Positions 5,653-58,144 are shown, numbered from the stretch's first letter. The stretch is 64,000 bases of DNA from a virus (IMGVR_UViG_3300021387_000118:13168-77167), one strand, 5' to 3'. Notes: generated by a model not told the origin, from the letters alone. Numbers and translations are program-made.

Positions 5653-5663
5653 TTTATTAAACA

Positions 5664-16154: not shown

Positions 16155-16204
16155 AATCACACCTCCATTCTTATTCTATACTTCATAAAATCTCCTTATT
16201 AAAT

Positions 16205-16237
16205 AGAAGACCACGGAGTCGAACCGCAGTCTTCTTG
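16205..16237 (-). terminator. Intra-operon hairpin (attenuator/terminator) between fiber genes
   Basis: On the minus strand, GAAGACTGCGG-ttcgact-CCGTGGTCTTC is followed by TATTT. A GGTTCGACTCC T-loop-like string occurs within it but there is no tRNA cloverleaf. Confidence 0.4.
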
Positions 16238-28800: not shown

Positions 28801-29117
28801 TTTCCCTCTGCATGTGAATTCTAACCGGAAGCCTCAGTATAATTCCCCTCTGCATGAGAATTCTAACCAGTCGCCCCAGAATGAAATCCTTCCGCATGAG
28901 AATACTCGCCGAGAGCACCAGTAGCAAACCCTTCCGCATGTGAATAATTGCCAGACGCTACATTGGCATTAATCTCAGAAATTTTCCCCTCAATTACAGC
29001 GCCGTCACCAGTCCCTTTTTTTATCCTATCCGAAAAATCAAAACTACGTGTAAAATCATATATATAAGTTTTAACCCTCTAAAGAGATGTCTTTAGTTGG
29101 TCTAATGTAATGACCAA
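25896..29117 (-). CDS. Tail fiber/tailspike (~1070 aa): N-terminal Hep_Hag-like SHAEG repeats, central domains, C-terminal alpha/beta-hydrolase (esterase; GxSxG = GISMGG)
   Basis: TTG start about 29117 after RBS GAGGTGA. At least 14 (N/Y)SHAEG..A(S/T)G repeats including 39-bp DNA tandem repeats at 28780-28900. The ARTLDWSGN motif is present. Fragments 27828-28256, 26952-27308 and 25896-26528 share one frame joined by TAGs. The C-terminus has LIIACGGSADRIG and GISMGGGAAA as in serine esterases. TGA at 25896. Confidence 0.65.
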
Positions 29118-29165
29118 AATAATCACCTCATTTCTATATAAATATTAATAAATTACAAACCATAA

Positions 29166-30737
29166 TTATTGTGTTGATGGCAATAAGGCAATTAACTGTT
29201 TAAGTATTTCTGGAGTTAATGTAACTTCATTTGCGGTTCCCATGCCAAGCGTGATGCTGCCGGAAAGAGATTCGTTTCCACTCCAGTCAAGCGTTCTGGC
29301 GTTGGAGCGAGCGCTATCACTAGTGCCGTTACCTACTATTTCTGCATAATTTCCACGAGCTGTTTCTGCAGCGGTGGAATTATCAAGAATATTATATTCA
29401 CCAAAAACATGCTGAGATCTATGATTTGCAGTTGTAAATGATCCATCCGCATGAGAATATAATCCGCTTGCAGTTGTTCCACAACCTTCAGCATGAGAAT
29501 TTCCACCGCTTGCAGTTGTTCCACCACCTTCAGCATGAGAATTTCCACCAATCGCTAAATTATTTGTTCCTTCACTATGAGAGCCTTGCCCATAGGCTCC
29601 TGCGGTATTATATATGACAGAATTAATAGTTTTTGATTTAAAGTTACTGGACTATCCCTCTGCATGAGAATAACTACCATTAGCTTTAGTACTACCACCC
29701 TCAGCATGTGATCCTATGGCACTAGCAGTTGTTCCGCTACCCTCTGCATGAGAATAATTATTAGATGCAGTTGTATCAGACCCCTCAGCATGAGAATAAC
29801 TACCAGATGCGGTTGTGCCAGACCCCTCAGCATGAGAATAATTACCATTAGCTTTAGTACCACCACCCTCTGCATGAGAAGAACTACCAGATGCGGTTGT
29901 ACCATTACCCTCTGCATGTGCGTTAATTGTGGTTGCTTTACTTCCATTTCCTTCAGCATGAGAATAATCAGCACTAGCTGTTGTTCCTGCGCCTTCAGCA
30001 TGAGAATATATCCCGATTGCCTTGGTACCAGAACCCTCTGCGTGAGAATAGTTTCCGCTTGCCTCAGTGTCGGTGCCCTCTGCATGAGAATTGTCTCCGG
30101 ACGCTACAGTACCATTACCCTCTGCATGGCTTGCTTTTCCTGATGCTATTGTATTTCTACCTTCGCTATGCGCGGCCTATCCATACGCACCCGCTTGATT
30201 ATACGTTTTATTGTTTATTTTTTTTGAAAAAGAACCATTTGTTTCACCCTCAGCATGGGAGCAACCACCAGATGCTTGGATATAATACCCTTCGGCATGA
30301 GCTTCGCTGCCACTAGCGGTGGTAGAAGCTCCTTCTGCGTGAGAAGCAGTTCCTGTTGCGTTAGTGCGGTTACCTTCTGCGTGTGCCCAATCTGTTGTAG
30401 CCTTGCTACCGAAACCTTCAGCGTGAGAGTGGTTTCCAGAAGCTATAGTTTGGCAACCCTCTGCATGAGACTGGTATCCAGACGCTTTGTTCGCTTTAGT
30501 ATAGTCATCTCTATCAGTTATTTGACCTTCGATTATTGCCCCCTCACCTTCTCCTTTCGCCATCCGGTCAGAAAGATCAAAGCTAGGCGCTGCATCAATA
30601 CTATCAGCCAAATCACTAAGATCAGTTTGCAACTACGATATATTAGCATCATTAGCAGCTATACCATCTTCAATATTATTTATCTTAACAGCAGTGATGA
30701 CATCTCCATCACTCCAAGTATTTTTTATGTAACTCAT
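29166..30737 (-). CDS. Shorter Hep_Hag/SHAEG-repeat tail fiber paralog (~520 aa)
   Basis: RBS AAAGGAGGAATGAT before the ATG at 30737. The N-terminus ..LADSIDAAPSFDLSDRMAKGEGEGAIIEGQIT parallels the upstream-gene paralog. SHAEG repeats. The C-terminus ...SNARTLDWSGNESLSGSITLG..TQ ends at TAA about 29166. Confidence 0.6.
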
Positions 30738-31154: not shown

Positions 31155-31712
31155 TCAGGACGCAAGGATGGTATCAATTTGAGCATTACTAATAATATCG
31201 GTAATCTCTACGTATCCACTCAAATCGATATCTGTATGACCTAATTTTTCAAACACAGTATCGATCCAAATGTATTCATCAAATCCATCATTAGTACCAT
31301 GAGGATCTGTGACTAAATAAATAATACCCTTCTCACCAGTTTGAGGAAGTTCATTGACCTTTTGGAAATCAAATCCAGTAATTGTATCTAACGCTGCCGC
31401 GATAGCAGTAGCAACATCATCTCCAGTTTGATAATCAGCACCATTAATCAGCTAATTATTATTTGTCGGAACACTAATATTTACTGCCTTAGAGTCAATA
31501 GCCTACGTAACGTTATTGACTTTAATGCTCTCAATAATATTTACCTAAGAACCAGATTCAATATTATTGAGTTTATTTTTTTCTGTATCAGAATAATCAT
31601 TTGTACTCAAACCTTTTCCGGTTTCCTTATCAACTTTATTAGCTAATAAATTCTTAATGGCAGTATAAAAGTACAAAAGACCATCTTCCGATAAAAAACG
31701 AGGTTTAGCCAT
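31155..31712 (-). CDS. Fiber-family paralog (N-terminal MAKPRFLSEDGLLYFYTAIK; C-terminal GIIYLVTDP..DEYIWID..FEKLGHTDIDLSGY)
   Basis: RBS AAAGGAGTGA before the ATG at about 31712. Three in-frame TAGs. TGA at 31155. Confidence 0.5.
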
Positions 31713-32407: not shown

Positions 32408-33096
32408 ATAAGTTACTCAGGAATTTCAATTCCATAATAAATAGCACCAATGTCAGTGACAGTTTGTAACGTCATAACATAGTGCTTTAATTTATTGAAG
32501 TATACTCTATGATATTCTTTGTTTTTCTATAGCTTATCATATATTTCAAATAAATCGCCGAGATTATATTCGCTATATGGTTCACCATCAGCATGGTAAA
32601 GTTTCTTTTCACCAGTTGCTACCCAAGGTTGAATACTTTGTAATTCAAGTTGATCCTCAATGGTGAAAGAGTAGTGTTTACCATTAATGTCTAAACCATC
32701 TTCAATAGCTTTCTTACATTCGGCACTGAGTTCTTTTATTTTCATATCACGAACAAACTCAAGATCAACATCGGTCACATCTTCTTTAATCGGCTCTTTC
32801 TTTTCCTCAATCTGCGGTTGAATAGTTTCCTGAACTTCAAGGGCAGAAGAGTAAGCATTGTATTCTTCTTCACTGATTTCAACAACAGATGCTTCTATTA
32901 ATTCGACAGGAATTTCCTGTGATAATGGTAACATCCAAACCGAGTCTCTGTAATACAGATCGCCGATTTGGATAAATTGTACATTATCAGGTTTTGTGAA
33001 AAGAATAATCTGATGCTTTAATTGATACATCCTAAAATCTTGAGTTGTTCCAACTCCGACAATAACATCGTTTTTCTAAATCTTATAATATCTCAT
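32408..33096 (-). CDS. Hypothetical protein (~229 aa)
   Basis: RBS GGGGGTGA before the ATG at 33096. Contains fragment 32527-33030. TAGs are read through to TAA at about 32408. Confidence 0.45.
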
Positions 33097-33114: not shown

Positions 33115-36100
33115 TTATACTGAGAAGCAGACATCGATGCCAAAGCTACTATATGGATAGCCATATCCCCACATGTTACCAGTATAAGAAACATAGTGGA
33201 AATATTCGCTTGAATTTCTCATAGGAGATCTTAACCACCAATCTGAAGGTGCTAACCATAATCCGCCATTACTAGCTGTAATAGTCCCAGCATAACCAGA
33301 TTGATTAATAGAAGAATATACATGTTTACTTGCATCATCTGCTGAAATATAAATATAATACATGGAATTTGTATACCACACATCTCCAGGAATTACGTTA
33401 TTTGAGGAAACCGTAGTAGGATCTTCAGAAGACGTAAACGCACGAGATCCATCCGGTACATTTATATTATTATATTTGCTTCTTGTTTGAGGATTTGTAA
33501 ACCAGGCAATAAATGAATCTTTTTCTCCTTCTTCGGGATATGGAGATGTTGAGTTGGCAGTCACTTCATAAACAGAAGGAACATAAATATATGTATCGGC
33601 TGCCACAATTTCAGTTGAATTATTTCCGGCACTTGATTTAACACTAACTTTCTTTAAGATTGATTGATAGACAGTCGGTAGTGCATTGAATATTCTTGTA
33701 TTTAAGAATTCATACAGTTCGGTATCTGGAAAACCACCAGCGTTCGTACTGTTAGTGTTCATAATATAACCACAATCCAATAGGCTATTGGCTATAAATG
33801 AAAGTCTCGCATACTGACTAGTATATCCAACTCTAAATCTTTCGCCTGATCCAGTATATTCCATTCTCCATGTTTCATGAGGCCATGCAGCTAATTCTCT
33901 GGCATTTGCATCACCAAGATCAGCATACCAAATCTTACACCAATGTACCCAACCTTGAGCATAATTAATATGACCTCCATCAGAAGCTTTTATTGCGCCA
34001 AATACAAGAGGTATATCTGTTGATGTAGACCTATTCCTAACTAACTCGGAAAACGTAACATTTGTATCATATGTATATCCATTTAAATTAAAAGCATATA
34101 TATATAAAGTATCCGATCCTTTTAAATGACGAAGAACACAAATACCTCGGTGATTTGTCGCGCCGACAGTCTGGTTTTTATCTCCCCATTGAATACTAGG
34201 CGATCCATTATTATATCTCAATCTAAATCCTTCAGAGCCATTTTCTTCGAAACATGATACGAGCGTTCTATTATTTGTAGTCCCAACAAATTCAAAGTCA
34301 ATAGCTAAAGTGAAAGATTCAGCATCAGCATTGAATAACTAAATATCAGTATCTAAGTAGTCAGATGTTCCATTGAAATATTGTTCAGAACAAATCAATG
34401 CTGATTCGACATTATCAAATGAGAAATCATGTCCAACAGTGATATCTTTATAGTCTTTAATATTATCTTCGTCATTTATATATGCATCAATATTAATACC
34501 AGAAGCATTACCAAGACCATAGATTTGAGCAGGAGTCATATTATTAAGGAGAGTACCAGAAGTTGGAAGAGTAGATCTATCCCATATTGCATAAACATCT
34601 GTATTTCCAGTAATATATCCTGTGGATTTATCCCATCCTGCAAAAACATTATAAGTATAAGAGGATTCTTCGTCTGTTCTTGTAGGTCTATCCCATTCAT
34701 AAACCGCTTCATCTCCATACCGTTTTTCAACACTTCTAAGAGGAACACCTGGTCTAGAATACCATGTTACAGTATACGTTCTGATTGTTGGAGTATATAC
34801 TGCTGTAATTGTTCTAGGAGCAAGCATAATGGATTCGATTTCATCCCAACTGCTAAATGTATAAGTATATTGAGCATCACTTATTTTCGTAGGAGCTTGA
34901 ATTTCACCAGTAGCAACTGGATCTGGAGGATTAGAACCACGGTCAACATAAATTGAACATAGTTCAGTTCCATCATCATTAACATATGTAGCCAAATACT
35001 GTTCGACAAGATAATTCGGATTATATGTCACTTCAAGATCTGCCCATTTCGCACCATATTTTTCCAGTTCTTTTAAACGAACAGCACCATTAATATAAAC
35101 ACTACCAGTAAGAGTAGAAGAACTAAGATTTAATAATGAATTCAGTATAGTTGAATCTGGAACAGTCCAATTCAAATCATATAAATAAGCAACTTCAAGA
35201 GTGTCAATTACATCGTTAATAATTTCAAGACTATTTAATGTACCACCTTGTAAAGTTAATTGTTCAATGTAATCCATAGAACATTCAAAATCCTCAAGAT
35301 CATTAAGATTTCTCATTACCAAAGCATTGAGTGTTGATGGGAGATGAGCAATCTAAACCTTGCCATTTATGGCGAATGTTATACTACTTATCCTGGTTCC
35401 ATCAGCATATAATTTAATTAAGTTACTGCATTCAGCAAGATTAAGCGTTCCCGTCAGATTTCCACAGTTTCTTAAATCAAGTTCTTCAAGCAGCTTATTT
35501 GAACCAAGAGTTAATGATGTTAATCTCGGATTTGAGTATCCTGGGGTAGTATTACCAAGAACAAGTTTACGTAATTTGGTTGCCATAGAAAAGTTATTAG
35601 CGGCAATATAACAAGCAGATAAATCATTGAGCGCAGAAATTCTATTTGCACCATAAATTGTAACCTGAGTATCTGTTGTTGTACTAACACTAAAGTTCAA
35701 TACAACAGTTTCTCCGGCTTTTGCTCTAATTTGTCTCTGATCACCATTACCAAACATGGCAGATACATACATATCTTGGAATGGAGTAATACTTAAAGAA
35801 TAGTTTTTCGGAACAACAACATCGTTGCCAGGATCATAACACCTAAATGTAATACGGTTATTGTCACCAACAACACTATTCATCAAATACTTTGTACCAA
35901 AATACATTTCTTGATCTCTTACCCATTGTCTTCTCTGATATTTCTTTCTTCCTTGCATCATATCTCTAAGGTATTGAGTATCATGTTTTGGAATAGAATT
36001 ATCAACGGATTTTCCTGTATAAGTTCTGATGTATTTTCTTTCTATATCAAGTCTCCAAATTTCTTCTGGATAACAACCTTGAAATCTATCAAATTGATTA

Positions 36101-39100
36101 ATTAAATTCGTTGCGCTAAAACACTCTGCCGAAACAGTATTAAATGTTTCTGTTATTTCATTAGACAGAAGATCTCTTAGACGGCACCAGAATACAGATG
36201 TTGCACCATTAAATACCCATCCAGAAGATGAATTACCATCTATGTTATAATCAGTATCTTCTTTACCATATGGGAATATCAATTCTCCGTTGTTATTAAT
36301 TCCTATCGCAGTATCAGTGTCATAGCACCACAAATCAAACGCATACTAAGTATAATAAGTCTTTTCTGGATCAATAGCGGTATCTTCGGTAGGAACATAT
36401 TCGTCGTCGATAAGTTCGCAATAAATATGAAGCAATTCCTCTACTGGTCTAGATACCTCTCTATATATTCCTGTTTTTGCGAAATGCCAGAATGTATTCT
36501 TTGCCCTATTATCCATCATGGTGTAATAAAGCGTAAATGAGTAGAAAAACTCGGCAGCACTTCGTACACACCATTGATCTAGCTCCTGAACAAATTGTTC
36601 ATTAGTAGAAGTAATCACCCATTTATAAAACGCTCTCCATACCTTTTCATTAGTCTTTACTTGTTTTTTGCCATAACCAGAATAATCATTTACAAGTTTG
36701 CCATCACGATAATCACCGCAACAAGCATATCTGGGTTCAAACGAATGATCTCCATCAAATCCTTCATTATATAAACACCAAATTCTCATGTTAAGATAAC
36801 CAGTCTCATCACCATCATATTTAGAGTCTCCTGTTTCATTAATAACATGAATTGTACCTTGTTGGAACAGAAGAGCATCGGCCTAATCTGCCGGAACTGG
36901 GAATACATGGCTAGAAATACTTGTCTCAGACACAGCTGTTACTACAAGCTCACCTTCCTTATCTAATGTTTTAACAATGTGAAAATGCTCATAGTCTAAT
37001 GTTCCGTCACCAGTATCATAAACACCAGTCTGGAAAGTTGCATTGTTCTTTGTGTTATCAGATATTTCTATTGTAAACTCGTTCATATCCTCTGGGTCAT
37101 ATGCACGAGTATAGTCTGTCTTCTTTGAATCGCCAAGATTACCAAGAGCGTAAAAATGCCATTCATTATCTTGGAATTCATTATGAGTAGTCACATCTGG
37201 ATTGGTTTCTTTAATAAATAAAATAGCCGGAACAAATTCCATGTCATTCTTAATACGAGGATCTCTTCTTTTAGCTGGAGAGGTGTATGTCAAGAAATCT
37301 GTGTATCTCTTTTGTAAAAGTGCATTATTTGCATTTTCGCTAGAGGCGATGTTTACCTTGAGATTAAAGAAATTATTAGGAATAGATGTTCTGGTAAGAC
37401 TAACTTTACCTTTAGTACCTTTCCAATCATCGCAAGCTTCCGTATATGCATTTTCCGTATTATACCCAAGAGTTACCCTAGAAATATAATCTGGTTCTGG
37501 ATCTTTAATCTTATCACTTGGATTATGTCTGCCATCACAGTTAAATAAGAAATCAACGTTTCTACCAGAGTTACCATAGTTATCAGATGTTGTTCCCTGA
37601 CCAGAGTGCCATCCATTTTCGAAATACCAGTTATCATAGTATTCATCACCAGGATAAATATCTCCACCAGGAGCATGAATACATCTAAGGTTTGACTTTA
37701 CAAATGTCTTTTTACTAGTCGTAAAATGATCAGTTTCCAACATAAGAACTTTTACATTGGGAACCATCGGAGCGAGTCTTTCTGGATCAATAATGCCGTT
37801 AGTATTATAAGGAGAATACTCGCCAGTTTCAGTATTGTAGTAAATACTATTTCTATCATATCTCGCAAGCATAGTCGTTGAATCCCTAGAGTCTGCAATG
37901 AAGTTTCTCATAACTCCCTCGGAAGAGAGTGAAGTAGAATAAATTTTCAACCTATAAATTCTTACGTCACAATAATTAGAACCAATTACAATAGGCTTAG
38001 GCTCATATTGATAAAATCTATCACTTCTATCATAAATATATGCCTTTGCTGGAACACCGTCTTCATACGACATTACAAAAGCTGTAGATGTTTCATCATC
38101 TAAATCAATTGCATCGATATTAATATCCATTTCAATAATATCTTCTTCGCCATATGGCATATATAAATATGTATTCGTAGCAGCTACCATTTCAGAACCT
38201 TCGCCAGATACATCAACATCACTGGCTTTATTCGTTTTAAGCCAACCGTTATGCGCCCCCATCTGAATACCCATGCTTACGGTTACGGTAGTTTCATCAA
38301 CTGTCTGACTTCTGGTTTCTACATTACTAAACCAGACAGCATCTGGATCTTGAACATTTTCTGTCATAAATACAATTTTCATTTCAGATCCAGTTCTTGA
38401 CGGATTATTATCAACACCACCATTAAACATCATATAATCAAATGAAGCAGTAGTCCCAGCCTTAATTAAGAAATATGAGTTACCATCCTCATCGGTTTTA
38501 TAGCCACCATTTGCCCAGTCAAAGTTGTCTGACACAGACATATGATAATTATCATTTTCCCAAATCCTATTTTCGGAACTATTAGTGATACCAACTGGAT
38601 TAAAGTCTAATTCAAGTCCACCAGTAATCGGAGCAACATCAATGCCAAGTTCAGTAACATTAACAATTATTGTCACGGACGTATTACGACATTCAATGCG
38701 CAAAGTATGTTGACCAACAATGTCAGATTTAAAACTCCATGTACCTTGAGATGTTTCCATAGTATCTGTTCCAACAAGAACATCATCAACGTATCTTCTC
38801 ACTACCGGATAATTGGTAGTAGGATCGTAAACATTATAAATAATTGGTAACGTATCAAACTGTCTTACCTTGGCAAGTCCATGATAGTCATATCTATAGC
38901 TACATCCGATTACAGGATTTTTATAATTACCCTGAGCATCAACATTTGGGTCATACCACATAAGATCTTTATAAATATGATTTGTTTCAATGTCAGTGCC
39001 GTTAATCGTAGCGGTAATCCATACATCTAATAAATAAGAACCATGTTCCTGCGCGGGAACAGTGTAAGACTGTAAGATACCTGAAGAACTAGTTGTAATA

Positions 39101-41463
39101 GTTTCTTCTACTCCATTTAATTTAAAATGGATGGTCTTATTAACAGCGCCATAAGGTGTATATGTAAACGATGCAGATCTGCCAATTTCAATAGTATATC
39201 TATCGTTATAGTCAGACTCAATCCTTACATCAACCTTTTGTACTGTAAATGTTCTAACGGCAGTACTCCCGCCTAAGTCTGTTACATTCAAACTAAATCT
39301 CTGCGTTCCAATATTACAGTAAGAAGTTACATCAATTGAGTTTAATCCCTAGATACAATCGTCACTTGCAATAACAGTATTTCCAAGTTTTAATGTATAT
39401 GTACCGTCAATCTCTTCTTTCTAATCATCGTTCGTGACAGAAGAATATCTAAACTCAAGAATAACATCATCATTCGGAGTAACAATAAGAGGAGATGGAG
39501 TAACTCTTTCAACAACAAGATTTGTTGATGTCTGTTGACCACCGCCGCCACCTTGAATAACGAACTGACTAACGACTTCTTCCTCTTGACCTTTAACCCT
39601 ACGAAGTCTATAAACATTATCAGTTTCTTGACCACCTACTTCATAAGTGCCATAATCAGCATAATATTCATATCCCTCGGTATCTATTTCACTTACTGCC
39701 TGTTGTAATGAAGTAACAGTATTATTTAATGAGAGGATGTTAGATTGATTTTGAGTTATTCTTGAATCTAATCCATCAACCTTTGTATTAGTATTGGTTA
39801 TACTCAGATTTAAAGTGGCAACGATAGTGTCAAGATCTTCCTGAGAAAAACCAATCTATACAAATTTATTATCCATATATCTATAATGGGCAAGGTTATT
39901 CCCCACACCAAACTAGACATAATAATCCTTTGTATCACTGGGATTCACGACAAGATTATCAAATCCCCAATTATATGTATTTTCACCCTATTCAATAGGG
40001 TAGTAAACAATCAGCTTAGAAGTATCAAGAACATACTTATTAACATAATCCGCAGCATTAGCTTCTCTGGCAATAGGATCGAAGTAATAGTCAATGGTAT
40101 TTTCATAAGCAATTACTTCGCCACTTCCACCGGAGATTAATCTCCAATCATTATCAATCCATTTATAGTATTGATATTCACCATCATTGCTCAGAATATA
40201 ATCAATACTTGGAATTCCTGGATCTGGTAATTGATCTACAACAACAGTAGAAGAGGAACTTCCAACTTCTACAAAATCATCATTAATCCATCTGTAATGG
40301 GAATACGTTCCTAATTCATTAAGAATATAATAATCAGTAGTCTCATCACCAGATAACGGCAACGATTCCCTAACTTCCGCAGAAGAGCCGGAGATCATTA
40401 CCCATGTGTTATTTAAATATCTATACTGGGTAATTTTGCCATTATCATTCAATAAATAATTGACATTAGTGTCTGGATCAGGCGGTAAACTAGTAACCAC
40501 AGATGTCCTTGTATTGGCATAAGTATACGGATCTATACCAATATTATTAGGATTATAAACGCTTGGCTGCATAGCCGAATCTGCCTTAGATAATGTAGAT
40601 TCAAAGTCCGCATTAACCATTGGTCTTGAGATTGCCCCAATACCAATATTCTGCATAGCTGAGTCGGCCTTTGCTAAAGTTGCTTCAAAATCAGCATCAA
40701 CCTTGGCACGACTGATTGAACCATTATCAATACTTTGCATAGCAGTATCTGCCTTGGCAAGGGTAGCCTCAAAATCTGCGTTAACCTTTGCACGAGAAAT
40801 GCTCCCATCTGGTATTGCCATGTCAAGGTGACTAACAGTATCAAGAGTTTCCTGTACATCAGGTGTTAACATATTGTACGTTACAGAATTTGCATCGATC
40901 TACTGCATTGCGGTATCAGCCTTTGCCAGAGTCGCTTCAAAATCTGGGTCAACCTTTACTCTGGTAATAGTTCCGTCCTCAATTACAATATTAGAGAGAA
41001 TACCTTCTTCACGATATCTCTCAATAACGTTGTTGACATCATTCTGAATCATTTCATCAAAATCTTCCGGCGAAATGGTCTGACCAGTAACAGCTTCGAT
41101 AATCATTTCCATTACGGTTCTATTCATTTCGACACTATGAGCATCGTCAACAACCATATCCTTAGTAATACTCAAACTAAGGTAATTTGTGGTCGCTCTT
41201 ACCTCATCGTTTTTAGTTCCATAAAGAACAAGGATGCATTCACCTGGCTCAACTGTAGATGGTAAATAAACCATATTATCAGTAATATAATCCATTACAG
41301 CATTTTTACCTTCTTGAATGAACTGGGCGACCTTGGATAATCCATCCCAATCCTCGTTAAAATTAAACTTAAAACGAATGAATTTTTGCGTACCAGACAC
41401 TATGGGCTTTAAATTGGTAACTAGCTTAAGCTATTGCCCAACAACGTTTATTAATATATCCAT
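33115..41463 (-). CDS. Giant (~2780 aa) tail/baseplate receptor-binding protein: N-terminal domain, 4 ISRAKV.ADFEATLAKADTAMQ repeats, ~800-aa beta-rich middle, LRR-like segment, C-terminal lectin-like domain
   Basis: RBS AGAAAGGAAAG before the ATG at 41463. Fragments 40900-41400, 39988-40872, 36883-39291, 36346-36789, 35353-36333, 34339-35322 and 33115-34221 all have end mod 3 = 0 and are joined by TAGs. I translated every gap and found no TAA/TGA. TAA at 33115. Confidence 0.6.
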
Positions 41464-41489
41464 ATTGTCTTTCCTTTCTATATTTAGTT

Positions 41490-44400
41490 ACTTAATTTAT
41501 CTTCGAGTTCTTTGATTTTATTCTTCAATTCCTAAATCTATTCATGATCATTCTTGATCATCTAAAACATAAGAGGAACAACTATGTTGCTATTCCACAT
41601 TTCTGGTGATCCATCATCGTTATGATCAATAGCAATTGGCATAATATCTTCCCAGTCCTCAACAATAAAACCAGGGATATCTTTATCATATCTTTGATCT
41701 GTATCTGCGATATAACCGTCTTTATATTTGAACCAATACACAGGAACATCATATAATCTATCAATGTCATTATTAGTCATGTAATCTGATATATTTTTAT
41801 ATCTGATCGAAGATGATGGCGCTCTACACATAAATCCGGCACTATCAACACGTAAATTAGGAGTATCTGTCTCGGCAACAGTATTCCACATTGTTGGCAG
41901 ATAAACTGTTCTCAATGTTGCAGTTCCAGTTATGTCTAAACCACTTGTACCAGTGATACCACCATGAACCATAAAATTACTTAACGAATGAATAGTATTA
42001 TCAGTGGAATCGACAGAAATTATATTAGTAGTATCTACCACGTCGGCTTTCATTATTCCATTAGAAATAGCAGTGGTTGATTTCATTCCAACACCACCTA
42101 TTGAATATTGACCATCAGCACTTATGTATTGATAATCTACACCGCCAACTTGATTAAATGTAACACCATTAATAGTGCCACCACTGAGAATATTACCAGA
42201 AAGTGTTCCGCTTATATTAATATTTTTAATCTTAAGATCACCATTACTATCAATAGTACAACCACCAATAATCCCAGAAGTCGCCACAATTTGACCACGG
42301 ATTATTGCATTATTAGCTGTCAACAAACCATCCTTATTTATCATAAGATAAGTTTCTTCATCGTCAGTACTGTCACCTAATCCAATATTGGTCAACACAA
42401 AATCTCCAGATTCAATTTCTGTAAACTCTTGATCACCCACAGTGATAGTACGTTTTGTAACACCATTAGCAGTAGTAGCAGTAGACACGGTAACATCATC
42501 TGTATATAAAATGTTTGCACCTCCAGTCAAATCAGTAACATTAGTAGGTATTGTGGGAGTGTTACTGATTGAACTATATGGTATCTCAACATTATTTCCA
42601 AGAGTTAAAGATGTGGCATTAATATTTCCAGTAATATCAGCATCAGATGCATATAGATGTCCGGCATTCGTCACATAAAATGGAACACTAACAGTATTCC
42701 CATCATCATTCTTAACGCCGAAAACTGTATCTCCAGTAAAGCCATCAATGATCGATTCTTCCTCTTCATGTATATACCCACTCATAGATTCAACAGATAA
42801 TTCAGCCTATTCTCCATCCTTTTCGGCTGTCATATAAATAATATAATGCCCCAATGGAGTAGCAGATGGCATAGTCACGCTAAATTTAAAATCGGTAATA
42901 TGATCACTAATAGGAAATGACAACGCATAATCATCACCATACTCGGCAGATTCAAAAGTATAATACACCTTATCCTCTAAAATAATTCCTTCTTCTTGCG
43001 CTTGTTGTTCTTCTTCTGGAGTATGATATAATGTAGCCTCTCCACCAGTTATCAAATCATTTTCTGGATAAGTAGTCGAGAAATTAATTGTATAACCATA
43101 AAGATCTCCATCATATGTTATGACAGCAATTTTCTCTTCAATGTTACCATTATCGTTAGGGATAAAAGTAAAACTGCCATCTATATTCTTAACAATTCTA
43201 GAACTACCTATGCATTGCAGCATAACTGTGCGACCATTTGACTCAGAATACAAACATCCTTTCAAAATATTCCAACCGCCAATATCTCCACTTGGAGAGT
43301 TGAGAGTCCCTGCAAAGTAAGCATTCGATTCCCACACTGGATCATCTTTAGTCCCAGTATTTGTATTAATAACGCTAAATCCTGGAGTTTTGAAATTTCC
43401 GCTTAGTAAATTCAAATAACTTCCTGTGGTAGAAAACATGCTATCATCAGATGGGGCTTTATAATTATTGCTAACAATTTCATTAATCGCCAAATGTTTT
43501 GCAAGAATTGAAGTGGTTAAAAGATTGCCGCCAGTAACAGTAGTATCACCAGAGTCACCCTCTGTAATCCATGTTTTTATAATTTGATCATTACTAGCAC
43601 CAGTGTTGATAATCCAATCATTTACATCACTAATTGGTCCAATAACATTTTGATAAGATTCCATCATGGAGTCAGCAGATGAATTCTCAATATATGTCTG
43701 CATTCCACCCTATAACAACTTAATCAAAAAAGATGAATCAATAGAGTATGATCCATCAAGATGTTTGCTGTTAGAGTATGCAGATATTTGACTATCACCA
43801 ACTCCAGTTGATAACTGGAATAAATCAACAAAGTCGTTTTGTTTCGATTTATATTGAACGATACTGGAGAAAGTAATATCAATATCAGGCTCAATCATAA
43901 ATGGATTAAGACCAATAGATATAACACGAAGCTTGGTTAAATAGTTAATATTATTTCGTTCGTATTTTTCCGGCTCGGTAGTGAGCGGGTTTTTCTCCAT
44001 ACCGATTGTAATATAGTTACCGATATCTAACTACCTTTGCCAGCTTTTAAATTCTGGCATTAAGAACAGGTTACTCTAAGATGTTACCCATTTCCACTGT
44101 GGATGAGAGACAGCATATAGCTCTTCCTGCGCAGCTTTATATAGTTCATCTTCAGTATCAACAATTTCTTGACTAGTAAAGATATCAGTTATAATCATGT
44201 TTTCATTTACATAATCTGTATGAACATAGTATTCTTTAATAAGATCAAGTTCAGCTTCTGTAAATCCGTAAATTTCATTAGCCATATTACCTTGATCCTT
44301 TAAGTCTTGCATCTGTTCAGATAATGATTTAAGTTCTTGTAATTTATCTGCTTTCTCTTGTTCTCTCTATGCCTTTACTTCTTCAGCCTCTTTTAATGCT

Positions 44401-46577
44401 TTATCATACTTTTGATATAGTTCGTATTTACGTCTATGAAAATCATCGTCATATTGATTTGTCCCGCCAGACTCCTCATCACTACCTTCTTCTGAATCAT
44501 CTTGAGTTGTCGTAGAGGTATCATTTGTAGGATCTTCATCTTGATTGTTAGGATCTTCACTGTCTTTGCCACTATCTGGATCTATTGTATATCCTTTTGC
44601 CCATAATGATTGTATTTTATTTTTAAGATCAGTAATACGCACATCAATTTCATTGAGGCCATAACTGTCACCATAAGTTTTAAAGTTATACATGTAATTT
44701 TCCAAATATTCTTTTTGTCGTTTATATGATGTTTTCTTTTCTCTTTCAACCTGATCGTCAGTTTTTTCTACAAATTTACCATTTTGAATTTGACGATTTA
44801 ATAAAACAATATCAATCTATCCTAAATGAGCATTATCTTCCTATGACTAAATTAAATAATCTTCTTTAACAGGATCAAAATAAATTAAATTCAAAGCATT
44901 CAAAGGTTTACTAAGAATAACAGTGGTAATATAAAGATATTCATTCCAATCATCTGATTGTTCAATGGCAGCAATACTAAAGTTGTTATTCTCATCCACA
45001 TAAAATTGTTCTAACCCTCTAAGTATAGCTTCATATTTTTTTCTTTCTTCTTCTAGTTCTGTTTCAGAGAATGACTTGTATTGACTTGGATCTGCACCAT
45101 CAACAGGAACACGATCTACAATGTAAGACAACTCGTCAAGCTTATCATAATAATCAACTGCTAAAGTTTTATATTGTTGTCGAAGCTGTTCTCGTTGTTC
45201 AACCCAGTTATAGTATTTATCTATAGTAGACTGATCAAAGTGATCAGTATTCATATAATACGAAAGATCCACCATAGTATCCTCACCAAGATTGGCATAT
45301 TTTATGTCAAGTTCATCTCCACCATTCACATGAAAGACTGTTTTTATTGGATCTTCATTTGACCTCTCAACGCTGTTCTGAATGTTCGCAAAGTTAATAA
45401 TTATATTAGTATCAACCCCAAGATTATTAACATTATAACAATTTACCAGTTTATTAATTGTATCAAAAACAAATATACATCGAAAATATGGACTTGCTTC
45501 TTGCATCAGGAAATTGTAAATGTTAGAAGAGGAGATCTCAAAACGACCAACCTTATCAGGCAGCGGTTTTAGGTCGTCCTCATCATCTGACTCGGATAAA
45601 ACACTTCCATCAACAAAACCAACATTCCAATCACTATCTTCAAGGACAGCGTCCATCATCGATAATTCCTTTTGCCTTTGAAGTTCTTTCTGTAACATTT
45701 CCGGTATAGTTAAATTTGGCAATGTTTCTGGCTAATCAGATGCGATTTCTTCTGGATTTTCATTAATAACTGTCTGAGTCAAATCAATATCTGAAACATC
45801 AAGATATTCGATCAATTCAGGATATGACTGCGTTAGGAAATAAATTACTTGCTATTTTTCTAGGTTCTTTTTCCTTTTTCCAATAGTATATGATCTAAGA
45901 GTTTGCGCACGTTTTTCATCGGTCATATTATTTGCGCAATTTTCAATAGCCTGAACAACAGTACCAGTATTATATGTCACTCGCCACGATCTATATAAAG
46001 TTGGATAAGATGGCAAAATGGCAATCAGATCCTGCTTTGTCCAAGTGTCATCTACCATATTTATTACTTCCTATAATTCAGTAGTGTCTCTGTAAAACTT
46101 CATATTCGACCAAGAAAACAATGAGTCAGATCCATCTAATGCCTTATAAACATTATCAGTAGCTAACATTTCAAGAGATGAATTAGTACCCATATTAATT
46201 TCCATTCCCTTGATAAAATAATTGGCTAATTCAATTTCCAACGATTCCGCCCTGACAGACATAACCTCGGAATTTCCATCGCCACTGATTGACGGCGGTT
46301 CATAAATTTTAAACCATCCAACTCCAGGCACTTCCAATTCCATCAAATATTCTATTCTGTGATAAAACTAACTGACTTTACCATCTTTCATTTTATTAAC
46401 ATCAAATGTTAGAACAGCAGTGTTATTTAAATTAATATCCAATCGGCAAGTGCTTTCATCAACACCATTTAATACGCCCAATAATCTTTTGCCAGGATTT
46501 GCTAAAGCAATATATGTAGTATTTATATATCCGTATTTATTATAGCTATCAAATAAAGGATATGATCTAATAATCAT
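41490..46577 (-). CDS. Tal-like tail tip / tail-associated protein (~1695 aa) with C-terminal peptidase-S74 intramolecular chaperone domain
   Basis: RBS GAAAGGTGGGTG before the ATG at 46577. Fragments 46368-46577, 46071-46346, 45852-46058, 44847-45722, 44367-44705, 44076-44312, 43710-44000, 42807-43703 and 41562-42785 all have end mod 3 = 2 and are joined by TAGs. The C-terminus (SSSIRYK...RYDKDIPGFIVEDWEDIMPIAI) resembles the auto-cleaving chaperone of tailspikes. TAA about 41490. Confidence 0.6.
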
Positions 46578-47409
46578 TAATATGCACCCACCTTTCTAGG
46601 CTCTCTCCATGTAAACGTTACATTTGCACCCTGAGTAACCGTAAAGATATTTTCGCCGTTATATAATTTAGGCCAATAAAATTGTGTAAGATCAGCAATC
46701 CCAATGTCTGAAAATGCAATATCATTTCCATCCTGATCGTATATGAGATATTTTTGACAATCAATATTTACTTCGGTGTTGGATGGGATTGTTAGCGTTA
46801 ATGAATTATTACCATCTGTAACAGCAGTAATAGTAACTTCACCAGCTGAATCACTAATAGTTACAATAGGATATAATTCACGTTTCCTTTCCGCTGAATT
46901 AACAACTATCTGTAATTGATTATCATCCTAAGTACTTGAAATTTGTTTCTTTTTTTCTTCAGTCCATGCGAACGGCGAATTAGTGTGAAACGTACAATTT
47001 AATCCAATAATGTCTCCATTCCATACCTATGATTGAATGTCGCTAAACACCCCAAAATATTCATACCTTGTAAAACTTTCCAGATCATCGTCGTACATTT
47101 TTAATAAAGTAGGATAGTCGGGAGATGTGAGCCACGCAGCTATCTCATTTACTTCATATTCAGTAAAAATCATACCTTCATCATCTGGAAATTCGCAAGG
47201 ACTTTTTATGAATGAAACATCGAACGACAGAACGTCGGACCACTAAGTTCCCATATTTGTTGTAATAGATCTATATCTATTTAGTCCACTTGAAAGGACT
47301 TCGCGAGATAATCCCAATGGGATTTCTTCGCTGACAGATATGCCACCAATCATTAAATTATAACTGGTAGAATTAATTCCATCATAATCAAAACTAAATG
47401 TTCTCAATT
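46577..47409 (-). CDS. Distal tail protein (Dit)-like
   Basis: RBS AAAGGAG with an 8-nt spacer to a TTG at about 47409. Protein starts LRTFSFDYDGINSTSYNLMIGG... as Dit proteins do. The TAA overlaps the Tal ATG (TAATG). Coordinates approximate, because my hand translation has a 1-nt inconsistency. Confidence 0.45.
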
Positions 47410-47475
47410 TTTCATCTCCTTTCTTTTCCTATAAGAAATAGAAGAGTGCGCTTTGACACGCACCCTTCTTAATTA

Positions 47476-50400
47476 TCATGCTCTTTTGTTATATGCTCTT
47501 TTGAAATTCTATGTGTTATAATCAAATTGTTTTTGCATAAAGTTACGATCTTTTAATAAGCTGTTTGCTATAGCATCAATCTTATTCAACATGTCACCAT
47601 CTACATTACCATCAATTCTGATAAGAGATTCATAATAGTAGTTTCCACCACTATTTACACTGCTTACATTGCTAACATTTGGAACAGAAGTATTTGCTTT
47701 TGTCGGATCTATTTGACTCCATTTCCAAATATTATCAGATTGCAGTTTAGGAAGAACTTGCGAACCCTATGGTAACTGCCTCAAAATGGCCCCATTTCCG
47801 AGAATAATCTCGTCATTATGAGTCAGCGCAAGTTCATCTTCATTGATTCTCTTTGAGCCTTTACGATAAGATTTTAACTTTGACGCACTGGTAACTCCCA
47901 ATTTCTTCAAATGTTTCTTAAGCTCAGATAACACGGCATTGCTCTGTTGAGATGTCCATGTCTTATCTACATGAACACCAAGAGCATTGGCTAATTTAGT
48001 AGGAACACCTTTAGAAACAGATCTTCCAAAAGTAGATGCTATATAATCGCCAATTGCGCCACCGCCATTATTCTTACCTTTTGGTAACCCTTTAATAATA
48101 TCAACAACCCTATCTGAAGTATTTAATAACCAATTCGCATGTGAATCGATATACTACTAGGTCGCCGGATCTGATGATACTGTTCCTGTTGGAGTTGTAT
48201 TGGTAGTATTATTTATATCCGTATTGATTGATCCAATTCCCCCATCTGCGGCTCCAACAGTACTTCCAGCCTAAGATTGTGCCTTTGTTGCTTCAATCAT
48301 AGCGGCAGAATATTCTTTAGCTTTTTTAATGAGATAATCAAGTTTTTCGCCAGTTACAGTTGCAAATGTATCAATAGCAGTAGTATCAATGTTTTGAGCA
48401 ACAGCACTAGTGAATTTTTTCCAGTTATTAGTTGGAACAAGAGTTTCTTCATTGATCGCTCCAAAGAATGCATTTAAATTAGGATCTTTTAAGCAAGCGT
48501 CTGATGTTTCACTAACAACAGTTCCGGTAGCTTTAATCCTCTGGTCAACAGTGTCATATGCCTCTTGATAATGACCAACTAATTGATTCAACATCATTTG
48601 AACAATACGGTCTTGTTCATCCGTGTTTGCCGCAATATGACGGAGAGTCTGATCGAGTGTTTCTTGAATATCCTATGAAAGTTGATCATATCCTTGGTTA
48701 AGCATATCATAGCGATGGTTGTATCTGGTATCTTCTAATGACTCATCTGCATCAGATAATTGCTGTCTTAATCTTGCGGCCTCAGCTTGTGCTTGTTTAT
48801 TAGTGGAACCTTCCAAGGAATTTAATTGCGCAAGAACTTTATTACGTTCTCTATTTTGATTTGTCACTTGCTTCTGATAATCATAATATGATTTTTGTTG
48901 ACTTAAAGCCTCTTTTCTTAATTCTATATTTTTTTGAATAGCAGCATTTTCATTCTATATCTATACCTTGTACATTTCGATCAATGCGTTCTTGTCTTCC
49001 TTCAGGTCTACAGCCATGCTTTGGATTTGCTTTCTATATTCATCGACTTGTTTTTCGCCTTCTTCAACACTTATGTTGTGGTTTTCCATTTCTTCATTTA
49101 CTTTATCTATAGCCGATCTTAAATTACCCATTTCATTAATGGTTGTTTTATAGTGATTGCCCAATAATAATATATTTGCTAAACCTTTATTGGTAATGCC
49201 CCAACCTTCGCCATCATCATCAAAGAATTCTTCTTGACTAAATAAACCGCGAAGATGTTCGAAATCGGATCTAGTAGTCTCAAGTTTATCCTGAAGACTG
49301 TCAAACTCTTTCCAGCGGAGAGAGCGGATGGATTTCTTAAGATTCTCATTCTAAATCACCATTTGTCTGAGCGCGGCTTCATCAGCTTCAATAGCAGACT
49401 TCAATTGATCATACTGTTCAGAACCTTCTTCGTACCCCATTGTATCTAACAATCTCTTATTATAATCCAATCTTTGTTCTGTGTATATGATATTTGAATT
49501 ATTATTTTTGATCTGACTATTATAATCATTCTCAGTTATGTAAGAAGATGGATCATTAAGTAATGTACCTCTGGCTTCTTTAAGAGCAACCCTATCTTGA
49601 TACATTTGTGCTTCTGCTTTGATGCGGTTCATCATATAATCAATAGGCTTTAAGTTGAGATCATACATCGCTCTTGTTAAATCTCTTGCATTCTTTTCGG
49701 ACTGTTTTAATGCAGTTGCCATACCTTGATAAGCTGTTTGTGCCTTACGATATTCGTTACTATCTACACCGAAAATTCCGGCAGCATTTCGCATTTCATT
49801 AAGATATGCATTCATTTGTGCTCTATAAATTTCCTGCGATTTGCCCTCAAGAGCAATCTGGTTAGCATACTCCTGCATATTACCATAAGAATTATCTCTT
49901 AATCCTTTAGAAGCATTAAGATCAATAATGGCCTATGAGGTCTATGCAACGGCTTGAGCGTATTCGTTTAAGGATTCGTATTGCTCCGTGATGTTATCAA
50001 GTTTCATTTGCTGAAGTTCTTTTTGTTTTGCAATACACTCCTCGATAGCATCCTCACACTCCAAAATTTTTTCATACCACGTTTGATATTCATTAATATA
50101 CGCTGTTGCTCTGTTTTCTGTCTTACTAGAATCTTTTCCGCGTGATGTTTTCTTGGTTTTAAGATACTTAGAAAAGTCTTCTACTGTTAATCCGCCTTCT
50201 TTAATTAGTTTATTAAGACGTTTTGCTTCTTTAGATGTCACTAGTCCAGAAGATTTCGCTTTCTTAACAACCGTTTTTAAATGAGAGGTATATCCACCCT
50301 TCTTTGAAATGGCACTTTCATTGGTCTGTCTTAAACTGATATTGGTAGCCATTGCGTCATCTATATACTTATTCTTTGCAGCGTAACCAGTCTCGCCTTT

Positions 50401-53400
50401 ATATGATGACGGCGCATATCCTCCAGCTCCACCTATATTCTCTGCTCTGGATATTGCAAGTTCCATTGTTCGAGTCAATCTTTTGATGCGAACTTCAATC
50501 CAATCCATAAACGAAGATGCCCAGTTCTGGAATTTCTCAAGAGCAGTAGTAGTGTTCTCTGTTGCTTCGGTTTCTTTTTCTTTAGCATCTGTGTTAGCTT
50601 GTGTAGCTTTAGTGTTGGCTTTTTCAGATGACGATTTTGAAGTGGATGGACCATTATCATTAGAATGAATTGTCGGATTCTTAACATCTACTGAACCACC
50701 ATGTGCCGGACCTATAGGTCTTAAATCAGCCAACGAAACTCCAGATCCTTGAGCAAATGCTTTACCGTGACCTAAAGCTTTTCCATGTTCAATCAGATCA
50801 GTAGTTTGCATATGATTTAGAATTATATCTCCTTTTTTAAGAGCTTCTACATGCATACCACCTGGAATTAAGAACCATTTCCCATCTCTAATAATCGATT
50901 CGGTTCCTAATTCATTAACAAGTGCTTCTTCGTCTTGATCAAGTCCTACTTTACCATCAGCAAAAGCACCAGAAATAGGTCTAAGATTAATAGCATTATA
51001 AGCAGTTCCATCCGCATGAGCAGGAGAGATCATAGTACCAGTATATTTATGTGTTCCACCAGGTAAACCAAATACATTTGCGGCAACAGATATTGTAAAA
51101 GGTCTATTAAGCGCCGCATCAATACTACTACTAATCTATGATGTTTCGGCAGTAACCGGAATCTATGCAGTTCTAGAATTAATATCATGAACAGCAAAAC
51201 TAACGCTACTAATAGCCGGAGAAGTATTCGCATCAACTGTTATTTCTCCTTTTGTATCATTTGCTTTTGATTCAACATCCTCTATGGCTTGTTCTGCCTA
51301 CTCTGTATTGGCACCAACCTATACATCATTTTGCGTTAACGCAGTAATAGATTCCTGATCTAATTTTACAACTAAATCTGCACCTTTTGATACTTCGTCT
51401 AATACCCCTCTAAGAGTTTCAAGATCTTCTTCTCCAGTTATCTCTACCCCAATATCTTTTGTTTCATCTTGAGCCATTTCTTCAATTTGTTGTGGAGTAT
51501 ACCCTTGGCTTGATAATTCGTAAACAACATCAATAATCTGTTGTTTATGTTCTGTCTACTCTTGAATATCAGGATTAGCTTGCCTTAAATAATTCTGTTC
51601 TGCTCTTGTATCATCAATAGCATTACCAGTCTGAGTAGGAGCCTTTGGTCTTGTTGAGTACGATTGTTCTTCTTCCAAGCCAAACAATTCTTTTAAAGTG
51701 GTAACCAAAGCATTTCCAGCTTCTTGACCAAGACCAAGCTTTGCCAATAATGAATCAAGCGCTCCCTCAAGTGCTTCATCCTAAACCTTGCCATCACCAA
51801 ATATAATTTTATCAAAATCTTCTCCTGTATAGCCCTCTAAAGAACTCATAATAGAAGTCATTTCTTCGTCTAACCCATCAGCAGAAGTATATGCTTCTTT
51901 TAATTGAGCAACTATTCCATCATGAGTTTCATCACCATTTTCAGTAAGATTAGATATGTCAGCATTTTCTGCTATAACAGGAGTAATCTTGACTTCATTA
52001 TAATCTGGGAATGCTCGTTGCATTGCCTCTTCGTCAACTTCTTTTAAGTCTGGAGTTAATTTAATATGGGTTTCATCTGCAATCTATTGCACTCTGCGTT
52101 CAAATGTATCTTGATCAATTTCCCCACGATTAAACATGTTCTAAATTGATTTAAAATCAGCGATTCCATTCCTGAGTTCTTTTGCTGTTACCATTCCTTC
52201 TCTGGCAGCAACATCTTGCGTGTTTTCAACAAGTTTGCGCTGGCGAGTTTTAAGATCTGTTATCTAATTATTAAGATCCTAAAGCTCCTCGTCCGATGCT
52301 CCCTCTCTACGTGCCTTATTATATCTAAGTTGAGCATCAACAAGGTCTTCCATATTATCTTTAACTTTAAGTTCACCCTCCGCCTATGTATTAACAAGAT
52401 CGACATAAGCACCATAATCCTCGACCCTACCAAGAAGAATATCTAATAATTCCGTTGTAATACCAAGACTATGAGCTGCCTCATCCATGTCTGGCATAGC
52501 AAGAGTATATCCATCATCTGTTTTTGACCCAAAACCTTTATCGACAGCATCTTTTATAAAATTACTTAATCCAGTAGCATCTTCAGTGAAATATCTTTTA
52601 ATCTTTTCAATATTTCTATCATATGCAGCAACAGTATCAGATCCATATTCATCAATCATTGCCGTAAATGCTCTAAACTCATCAGTTCCGGTTAGTCCTT
52701 TGGAGTAAGCATCTTGCATATCTTTTAATGCGCTTTGTATTGTATTATATCTATCACCACCATTTGCAGTAGACTCAGCATTTTGCCATTGCGCAAAATC
52801 TGTGAATTGTTGCTTCTATTGATCGTACAAAGCTTGAAGCATAGATAATTCACGTTCAGCTGCGCTAATACGCTATTCAGCCGCTGCAACTGCCTTTTGC
52901 GCAGTTTCCGTTTCAGCATCACCGTACATTTCAATAATGTTTTTCTGTTCTTCAATCGTATCTTTTAACGTACTTACTTGCAGTTCATATTCTGCATCGA
53001 CTAAAGTTTCTGCTGCATCCGCATTCATTTTCATGCCATCAGCACTCTAATAGAAAATACTACTGACATCATATCCAACAAGATCACTAAATTGTCTCTA
53101 TAACTCATTCATAGTATCAATAGTTAATCCTGTTTCTGAGTTCATTTCGCTAAAAGCAGAAGAGAGAACCGATACTAGTTCTGAAGCATTAGTAGATACA
53201 AGAGATGTCATAGTCTCATACCAACCAATTTGACTTTGTTGCATAGCAGAGATAGAAGCATCTACATCATCAATCTGAGATTGATACTCACGCCATGTAG
53301 ATCCGCCACGCTGAACACCCCTTTGAAGATTTTCAAGTTCTTTTCTCTATTGTTTAAGATTATCAATTTGCTCATTACCATTACTAATCAAAGATTTGTA

Positions 53401-58040: not shown

Positions 58041-58144
58041 TGTTTTCACCTTTAGAAGTCGTAGATAAAATCATTACATATAATAGTAAAATACATATGG
58101 TAAAATATAAATGCTAAAGATAATGTTTTTGTAGTTGAACAACA

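Follow-up and report, generated by a model that had tools for sequence, protein, structure and literature searches.

The 64,000-nucleotide stretch of viral DNA IMGVR_UViG_3300021387_000118:13168-77167, called the window in what follows, has a G+C content of 36% and carries on its minus strand two consecutive giant genes that are masked, under the standard genetic code, by the recoding of TAG. The first, gene A (41484..46577), encodes a Tal-like tail-tip hub/fiber protein of 1697 amino acids (aa), with 15 in-frame TAG and a terminal TAA. The second, gene B (33115..41463), encodes a multidomain tail protein of 2782 aa, a putative receptor-binding protein, with 11 in-frame TAG and also a terminal TAA. 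Unless stated otherwise, the features described below are on the minus strand. An earlier note on this DNA had drawn attention to both open reading frames (ORFs); their existence and coordinates stand, and the lengths that it gave, 1695 and 2780 aa, are each 2 aa short. The observation of two giant genes masked by recoding is thereby confirmed.

In the coding frame of each gene, no TAA or TGA occurs before the terminal one. The other two frames hold 77 (41 TAA and 36 TGA) and 227 (99 and 128) of these triplets in the gene A DNA, and 110 (70 and 40) and 341 (153 and 188) in the gene B DNA, which rules out chance for both open frames and agrees with the proposal that each gene is a single frame free of TAA and TGA, over 5.1 and 8.3 kb respectively. 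Read with the standard code, gene A falls into 16 in-frame pieces and gene B into 12; those of at least 60 aa number 9 and 8, that is, the “about 17” fragments that had been noticed before. Re-annotation with TAG as a sense codon restores both genes as full-length single frames. The motif AAGGTGG, which is Shine-Dalgarno-like, precedes gene A, the ATG of which overlaps the stop codon of the gene for the distal tail protein Dit, and a similar motif, GAAAGGA, precedes gene B.

The same recoding extends over most of the window. When TAA and TGA are taken as the only stops, the minus strand contains 16 ORFs of at least 250 codons, with 16358 codons in all, compared with 4777 codons when all three stops are applied, and these long ORFs fill the strand from ~7.4 kb to the right end of the window. 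The minus-strand genes include 197 in-frame TAG in 17726 codons, together with 164 CAG and 415 CAA; every one of them stops at TAA or TGA and none at TAG. By comparison, not a single in-frame TAG is found in the 1903 codons of the plus-strand genes at 5-7023, the products of which are a ribonucleotide reductase with a TSCPD domain, an SPFH/Band 7 protein, a dUTPase, and a tyrosine integrase.

To avoid the circularity of database translations, three independent lines of evidence on the meaning of TAG were chosen. In an alignment of gene B orthologs, in which TAG was translated as X and only real CAA or CAG codons were counted as glutamine, 60 of the 117 residues opposite TAG (51%) were glutamine, followed by serine and glutamate (11 each), against a background of 2.6-3.2% glutamine in these orthologs. 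Three relatives in IMG/VR have a gene B segment (aa 706-1526) that is 71-87% identical. In one of the three, the contig L004 (IMGVR_UViG_3300045988_132409), which uses the standard code throughout, the gene B ortholog is one ORF of 2673 aa with no TAG at all. Finally, the DNA of the public contig L005 is 97.7-98.5% identical to the window over 15 kb, and in genes A and B the two have 23 TAG positions in common and differ at six, all six being exchanges between TAG and CAG. Their remaining codon differences, 215 synonymous and 56 non-synonymous, are scattered along the entire ORFs, which points to purifying selection downstream of every TAG.

These data bear on two other explanations. The 28 in-frame pieces that the standard code yields in this region would be expected if the TAGs were true stops and the region consisted of many small proteins or decayed pseudogenes. 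This explanation is effectively refuted by the open frames of 5.1 and 8.3 kb, by a homology to full-length proteins that is unbroken at every TAG and includes the TAG-free ortholog of L004, by the 215:56 ratio of synonymous to non-synonymous differences beyond the TAGs, and by the exchange of TAG with CAG only. TAG is a sense codon in the late genes, as the earlier note had supposed, and glutamine, by far the best fit, is most likely the residue that it encodes. It is very improbable that TAG is translated as another residue, or that it is read ambiguously, by read-through of low efficiency. In distant orthologs, roughly half of the positions opposite TAG indeed hold residues other than glutamine, and no suppressor tRNA was found from which an anticodon and an identity could be read; however, no residue other than glutamine exceeds 9% at these positions, the near-identical relative L005 has CAG at each of the six replaced TAGs, and with 15, 11, and 55 TAGs (the last in one piece of the tape measure gene), inefficient read-through would leave essentially no full-length product.

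The use of code 15 is established in phages of the human and animal gut, in which early or metabolic genes lack TAG and late ones are rich in it (Borges et al., bioRxiv 10.1101/2021.08.26.457843; Peters et al., PMC9523058). The window resembles these phages in that TAG occurs in late, structural genes and is absent from the ribonucleotide reductase, dUTPase, and integrase genes of the opposite strand, in the alignment of TAG with glutamine, in its low G+C content, and in having close relatives with the standard code. Two such relatives, L004 and L057 (IMGVR_UViG_3300001520_000029), encode tail proteins that are 56-71% identical to those of the window, with 0 or 1 TAG in the homologous ORFs; because they use the standard code, recoding was acquired or lost in the history of this phage group. 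Unlike the window, in the 64 kb of which no suppressor tRNA is seen, phAss-1 has three (phAss-1 group, PMC10607447), and the window differs from crAss-like code-15 phages in its probable origin, a ~100-kb siphovirus-type phage of Clostridia.

Gene A matches the PHROG 6211 “minor tail protein” (E 3.6e-20), and a database search returned 546 homologs. One of these, P0121, is 98% identical and is annotated on two public contigs with a length of exactly 1697 aa. Among the matches listed, aa 1 to ~960 are common to 120 of 120 homologs and only a handful share the region beyond ~960, which is the familiar division into a conserved hub and a variable distal part. The former (aa 1-960, 43698..46577) was assigned to the gp27/Tal-type hub modules from this conservation and from an AlphaFold2 (AF2) model of aa 1-958 of P0121, the 98%-identical protein rather than the window sequence itself, with a mean confidence (pLDDT) of 79. 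Compared with the PDB by Foldseek, the model matched the monocin tip 9j1k_L (E 6e-7), the Listeria prophage protein gp18 (3gs9, 1.9e-4), the phage 80alpha baseplate (6v8i_AE), 2z6b_D, and the Tal protein of phage NF5 (9m7n_A), as well as the Bxb1 tail tip, T4 gp27, and many VgrGs, all with a probability of 1.0. As modeled, the N-terminal ~960 aa of gene A thus adopt a gp27/Tal-type hub fold, enlarged by a variable insert of ~150 aa at about aa 150-300, by long helices, and by an acidic low-complexity stretch. Together with the gene order, in which the tape measure protein (TMP) and Dit are followed by gene A and then by gene B, this fold bears out the earlier description of the protein as Tal-like.

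Searches of the PDB by sequence and by profile gave nothing significant for the gene A hub or for gene B, and Pfam, applied to the whole proteins of both genes, recovered only DUF6273 and a weak Peptidase_S74 match. Distant homologs of gene A contain Prophage_tailD1, CBM_4_9, and Peptidase_S74 domains. One homolog, P0198, which is 44% identical over aa 17-138 of gene A, passes PF18994 (Prophage_tailD1); because it is P0198 and not gene A that does so, membership of gene A in this family is only transitive. In comparison with the Tal/gp27 hubs of siphophages and tailocins of Gram-positive bacteria (9j1k, 3gs9, 6v8i, 9m7n), gene A has the same position after TMP and Dit, and the same combination of a hub fold at the N-terminus with a long, variable extension at the C-terminus. 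It differs from them by the expansion of the module to ~960 aa and the absence of a peptidoglycan hydrolase domain and of a Pfam Prophage_tail match.

The distal region of gene A (aa 961-1588, 41814..43697), which few homologs share, is presumed to form a trimeric fiber. Its sole family match is PHROG 5269, at aa 1402-1449, and a search of IMG/VR with the C-terminal part of gene A returned no relatives.

The protein ends in a domain of 109 aa (aa 1589-1697, 41487..41813) that opens with S1589-S-I-R-Y-K1594 and finishes in a coiled-coil helix, as expected of an intramolecular chaperone of the Peptidase_S74 type. The earlier note had proposed such a chaperone with a serine-lysine dyad, and the peptides that it quoted, SSSIRYK and GFIVEDWEDIMPIAI, are found in the gene A protein. 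All five aligned homologs match Peptidase_S74 (best E 1.4e-6), and three of them, P0122, P0129, and P0216, pass the gathering score of PF13884 with 25-43 bits. Moreover, the serine and the lysine at +5 are invariant in the alignment of the five, and the profile of the domain matches chain 6f45_A of the long tail fiber of phage S16 (E 8e-6) over the SS..R.K motif and the terminal coiled coil. Because the homologs match, the dyad is invariant, and the profile matches 6f45_A, we accept the C-terminal 109 aa as a probable S74-type chaperone. In T5 pb1, the scissile residue is Ser1264, the activating residue is Lys1269, and the domain also has a C-terminal coiled-coil helix (PMC4690869); by analogy, gene A may undergo autocleavage at Ser1589.

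The score of gene A itself, 17.1-17.6 bits for PF13884 (E 0.005-0.007), is below the gathering score of 22, and the best match of the single sequence to a solved structure reaches only E 4e-4. Such values would fit a degenerate, non-cleaving S74 relic, or a domain that is not S74 at all. This is improbable, since the serine and the lysine at +5 are retained in five of five homologs, four of which are only 40-54% identical to the window, since three of these homologs exceed the threshold, since the match to 6f45_A improves to E 8e-6 with the profile and includes the motif, and since the C-terminal helix expected from T5 pb1 is present. The S74-type chaperone of gene A therefore remains the preferred assignment. 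Like the domains of the K1F endosialidase, T5 pb1, and S16 gp37, it is a C-terminal domain of ~110 aa that starts at a serine followed by lysine at +5 and ends in a coiled-coil helix; unlike them, it is divergent in sequence, sub-threshold in Pfam, and carried by a Tal-type hub instead of a side fiber or tailspike, an arrangement also seen in the homolog P0216.

The family that includes gene B comprises more than 120 clusters of full-length homologs, which are 2500-2900 aa long and 31-77% identical; nearly all carry DUF6273, and their contigs measure 100-190 kb or more. In GTDB genomes, 42 loci were found, mostly in metagenome-assembled genomes of Clostridia, Lachnospiraceae, or Ruminococcus, and isolates with homologs include Clostridium sp. 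chh4-2, Clostridium transplantifaecale (within a 1.35-Mb contig), and Ruminococcus sp. YE282. From this distribution, the phages and prophages that carry the family are those of gut Clostridia. A 1673-aa homolog is also present in phage NatCom_3357, after TMP, Dit, and a protein of 800 aa. The module of genes A and B is mosaic: gene B is ~70% identical to its counterparts on L002 and L003, whereas the adjoining gene A is only ~26% identical (L002 2562-6842, L003 2640-6932), and the closest full-length relatives of gene A sit on other contigs.

The N-terminal domain of gene B (aa 1-130, 41074..41463) matches PHROG 19695 (E 8e-8) and is presumed, from its position, to attach the protein to the baseplate; an anchor of the BppU_N type was considered and found no support by Pfam in seven homologs. 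Four repeats follow (40567..40947), each with a 22-aa core in a 28-aa unit (IS R.KV.ADFEATLAKADTAMQ). A motif search located four [AP]DFE[AS]TL[AS]KAD[ST]AMQ cores, at aa 173-187, 229-243, 257-271, and 285-299, in accordance with the four 22-aa repeats first noticed, and Tandem Repeats Finder described the last three as 2.8 copies of an 84-nt period (40567-40797). Hairpin motifs of the YY..W type and a coiled coil can be read from the sequence after these repeats.

The following region, aa 612-1239 (37747..39630), is predicted to be beta-rich, with Ig/PKD-like and jelly-roll-like parts, and matches PHROG 14959 (E 1e-64). It is common to Hankyphage-type proteins, and by tblastn aa 688-1213 match the Bacteroides phage p00 at 22% identity; the PKD-like match is weak (E 0.03). 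A variable repeat of the type associated with diversity-generating retroelements (DGRs) was looked for in gene B and not found.

A CotH-kinase-like domain, overlooked in the earlier list of gene B domains, of which the repeats and the leucine-rich repeat (LRR) stretch stand, is predicted at aa ~1240-1950 (35614..37746), with the motifs DNRAKN (D1651, N1656) and YDTDT (D1715). An AF2 model of aa 1240-2395 was made on an 85%-identical ortholog (pLDDT 82, pTM 0.69), and Foldseek matched it to Bacillus cereus CotH (5jd9/5jda) with an E-value of 8e-6, a probability of 1.0, and a target-normalized TM-score of 0.57 over 559 columns. The model therefore shows a CotH fold in gene B. At the level of sequence, gene B itself has no Pfam CotH (PF08757) match, four of eight distant members reach 17.5-20.8 bits against a gathering score of 23.8, and two narrower profiles of the CotH core, compared with the PDB, returned only spurious matches to designed repeats or RNases. 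On the other hand, this core is the most conserved part of the gene B family, and the motifs DN[RV][ACS]KN and YDxDT..G..N.G are invariant in three independent alignments.

In B. subtilis CotH, the catalytic and the metal-binding aspartate are D228 and D251 (PMC7821199). Family members without an insertion have two aspartates 23 residues apart and an asparagine at +5 of the first, which corresponds, in a comparison of spacing alone, to D228/D251; the window copy has an insertion of ~41 aa between the two motifs. The catalytic residues may be retained, and the domain may be catalytically competent. The likeness to the CotH kinases of B. cereus (5jd9) and B. subtilis lies in the fold and in the spacing of the Asp-x4-Asn motif and of the second aspartate at +23 in insertion-free members, and the differences are that the gene B domain, a putative kinase, is embedded in a 2782-aa protein of structural modules and contains the ~41-aa insertion. 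Among the predicted viral structures of BFVD, similar proteins are common in uncultured phages, on contigs assigned to Siphoviridae, Myoviridae, and crAss-like phages, under names such as “Spore coat protein,” “CotH kinase protein,” “Leucine-rich repeat protein,” and “Internalin-like protein,” and gp353 of Bacillus phage G is one of them. CotH-family domains in phages have been described as “currently unstudied” (Benler et al., PMC8008677). The cases in that study differ from gene B, in which the domain is not fused to a C-type lectin or DGR target and is not accompanied by DGR-like repeats.

Two related contigs have gene B interrupted by an insert of ~1.05 kb (L005 20283-21337, L003 13149-13982) at a site that corresponds to position 36296|36297 of the window, which is thus an insert-free allele. 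This insert contains an ORF that resembles GIY-YIG homing endonucleases, with NUMOD1 (E 2e-6), and sits exactly inside the invariant motif of the CotH-like domain, YDTDTA.GIN|NNG. It matched no group I intron model, and simple inspection revealed no junction with a terminal G on the insert.

C-terminal to the CotH-like domain, the model contains an LRR domain at aa 1961-2135 (35059..35583), with boundaries taken from its secondary structure. The top Foldseek match in the PDB was residues 36-392 of InlB, which comprise the LRR and a B-repeat (E 5e-6), and LGR5 and biglycan were matched as well; homologs of gene B have weak LRR_4 and LRR_EndoS matches. The predicted fold confirms what had been described only as an LRR-like stretch as a genuine internalin-like LRR domain. 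Two beta-grasp B-repeats of the Listeria-Bacteroides type are predicted next (aa 2156-2300, 34564..34998), a region that Foldseek matched to the B-repeat of InlB and to tandem ubiquitin/ISG15 folds; one homolog has a Flg_new match here (E 3.8e-5), below the gathering score. The protein ends, after a candidate LamG-like stretch, in DUF6273 (aa 2570-2782, 33118..33756; PF19789, 32 bits against a gathering score of 23.5, E 1.4e-7). As in internalin-type adhesins such as Listeria InlB and in BspA-like proteins, an LRR solenoid is followed by beta-grasp B-repeats; unlike in these proteins, the module is internal to a phage protein, has no cell-wall anchor, and shows a sequence likeness below the Pfam thresholds.

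The adhesin-type domains and the position of gene B suggest a role in receptor binding. Alternatively, gene B could be a tail-associated enzyme or effector built around the CotH-like domain, or a surface protein that is not part of the virion, with host recognition left to the downstream fibers or to the distal part of gene A. The conservation of the CotH-like core, with its invariant D-x4-N and D(+23), would fit such a function; several other fiber-like genes lie downstream of gene B, gene A has a variable distal fiber region of its own, and no family member has a demonstrated receptor-binding activity, the phage CotH domains being “currently unstudied” (Benler et al., PMC8008677). Nevertheless, the LRR, B-repeat, Ig-like, and C-terminal DUF6273 domains are typical adhesin modules, and gene B directly follows the Tal-like gene, as does its homolog in NatCom_3357. 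An adhesion role and an enzyme domain can also coexist. We therefore consider an enzyme, effector, or non-virion protein somewhat unlikely and favor an adhesion appendage attached to the baseplate. A separate proposal is that the CotH-like core is an active kinase on the virion tail tip, the substrate of which, at adsorption or assembly, would be a component of the host surface or one of the phage's own proteins; this is speculative and rather unlikely.

Further fiber-like features are found downstream of gene B. At 28453-30486, the ORFs 29166..30737 and 28283..28969 contain long arrays of 42-nt (14-aa) repeats with units of the form ...SHAEG.GT.ASG..., and look like a fiber or adhesin head-repeat protein. 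At 14259-21250, there are two large fiber-like genes: one encodes 1670 aa and contains internal repeats of 117-132 nt, and the other encodes 631 aa with two Laminin_G_3 domains (E 2e-31).

Upstream of gene A, a Dit-like distal tail protein of 300 aa is encoded at 46577..47479, with four TAG and a stop codon that overlaps the start of gene A. Its ortholog on L005 has DUF6558 and DUF6558_C matches, in addition to a faint match to SPP1_Dit. The tape measure gene precedes it in two pieces (59446..63999+ and 47476..58074; PF10145 PhageMin_Tail, E 9e-18). It is apparently a single gene, at least 5000 codons long, which this phage has in split form: the ORF 59446..63999+, which contains PF10145, runs off the edge of the window, and after ~1.4 kb the homology resumes in the same frame in the ORF 47476..58074, of 3532 aa and 55 TAG. 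In L051 and L057, a single continuous tape measure ORF crosses the junction; it is open at both ends and has at least 4335 codons in L051 and at least 4330 in L057. A tape measure spans ~1.5 Å per residue, and at least 5000 codons would then imply a tail of at least 750 nm. The insert that splits this TAG-rich gene contains, at 58183-59169, a TAG-free ORF of 328 aa with a GmrSD_N/DUF262 match (E 6e-16); it may be a spliced intron, or else the TMP may be made as two pieces. A second insert, of 1.4 kb, is present in the tape measure gene of L005 (5186-6583, corresponding to position 50075 of the window, which lacks it), and encodes a 341-aa cysteine-rich ORF without a Pfam match. No group I intron was detected with Rfam in the window or in the insert that splits gene B in its relatives.

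The genomes of relatives measure 101-107 kb, and ~35-40 kb, or about a third of the genome, would thus lie outside the window. A nucleotide search of a phage collection (50,697 GenBank records) with the window gave no match. The integrase encoded in the window suggests a temperate lifestyle.

Taken together, these results make it likely that the window comes from a siphovirus-type phage of gut Clostridia with a genome of ~100 kb and represents its late, structural arm, and that in this phage TAG is read as glutamine, gene A is a hub and fiber protein with an S74-type chaperone, and gene B is an adhesion appendage attached to the baseplate; this degree of confidence applies to the interpretation as a whole. 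Several observations weigh against it. ARAGORN found no tRNA gene of any kind in the 64-kb window, hence no suppressor tRNA(CUA), and no tRNA in the loci of the relatives L002-L007, L049, and L050 (~100 kb). Both structure models represent close homologs (98 and 85% identity) and not the window sequence. Gene A has no Pfam match to Prophage_tail (PF06605) or Prophage_tailD1 (PF18994) at E <= 0.1, its S74 score is below threshold, and no lysin domain (peptidase, lysozyme, or amidase family) was found in it with Pfam and PHROGs, for which reason we call it a Tal-like hub and not a demonstrated lysin. As for gene B, its N-terminal domain belongs to no known baseplate-attachment family (no Pfam match, seven homologs), and any of the fiber-like genes downstream (32413..33096, 31155..31712, 29166..30737, 25896..28256, and 16238..21250) could encode the true receptor binder.

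Drawing on the established knowledge of siphophage baseplates and S74 chaperones, we propose the following mechanism. The phage would decode its late genes with genetic code 15, in which TAG stands for glutamine, and this recoding may limit the synthesis of the gene A and gene B proteins to cells with an active TAG suppressor, whatever the source of its tRNA, as has been proposed for code-15 late genes. In the virion, the N-terminal ~960 aa of gene A would form a gp27/Tal-type trimer that closes the tube below the Dit ring, and the distal ~630 aa would form a trimeric fiber, the folding of which would be nucleated by the C-terminal 109-aa S74-type chaperone; the latter would then cleave itself off at Ser1589 by means of Lys1594. 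The gene B protein would be a baseplate-attached appendage, anchored by its N-terminus and with its C-terminal adhesin-type domains facing the host, in the predicted order anchor, repeats and coiled coil, Ig-like/jelly-roll, CotH-like, LRR, two B-repeats, LamG-like stretch, and DUF6273. Its most likely function would be adhesion to the host surface.

Code-15 late genes, Tal extensions with S74 domains, and CotH and LRR domains in phage tails have already been reported or are visible in public databases, and our findings fit these known categories and do not overturn current knowledge. Their practical consequence is that a standard-code annotation shreds the whole tail module into dozens of meaningless fragments, whereas TAG as glutamine restores a textbook module of TMP, Dit, Tal, and fiber, with two full-length proteins available for work on host range and structure. 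The gene B family (~2500-2900 aa) is essentially unannotated, labeled only “DUF6273 domain-containing,” and has hundreds of relatives in public data. Its CotH-like core, placed beside an internalin-like LRR, offers a testable lead on how phages engage Gram-positive gut bacteria. Phages and prophages of Clostridia account for more than 120 protein clusters with this core, and crAss-like phages and Bacillus phage G contain the fold as well; if it were indeed an active kinase, it would represent a widespread enzymatic step of infection in gut Firmicutes that has so far gone unstudied.

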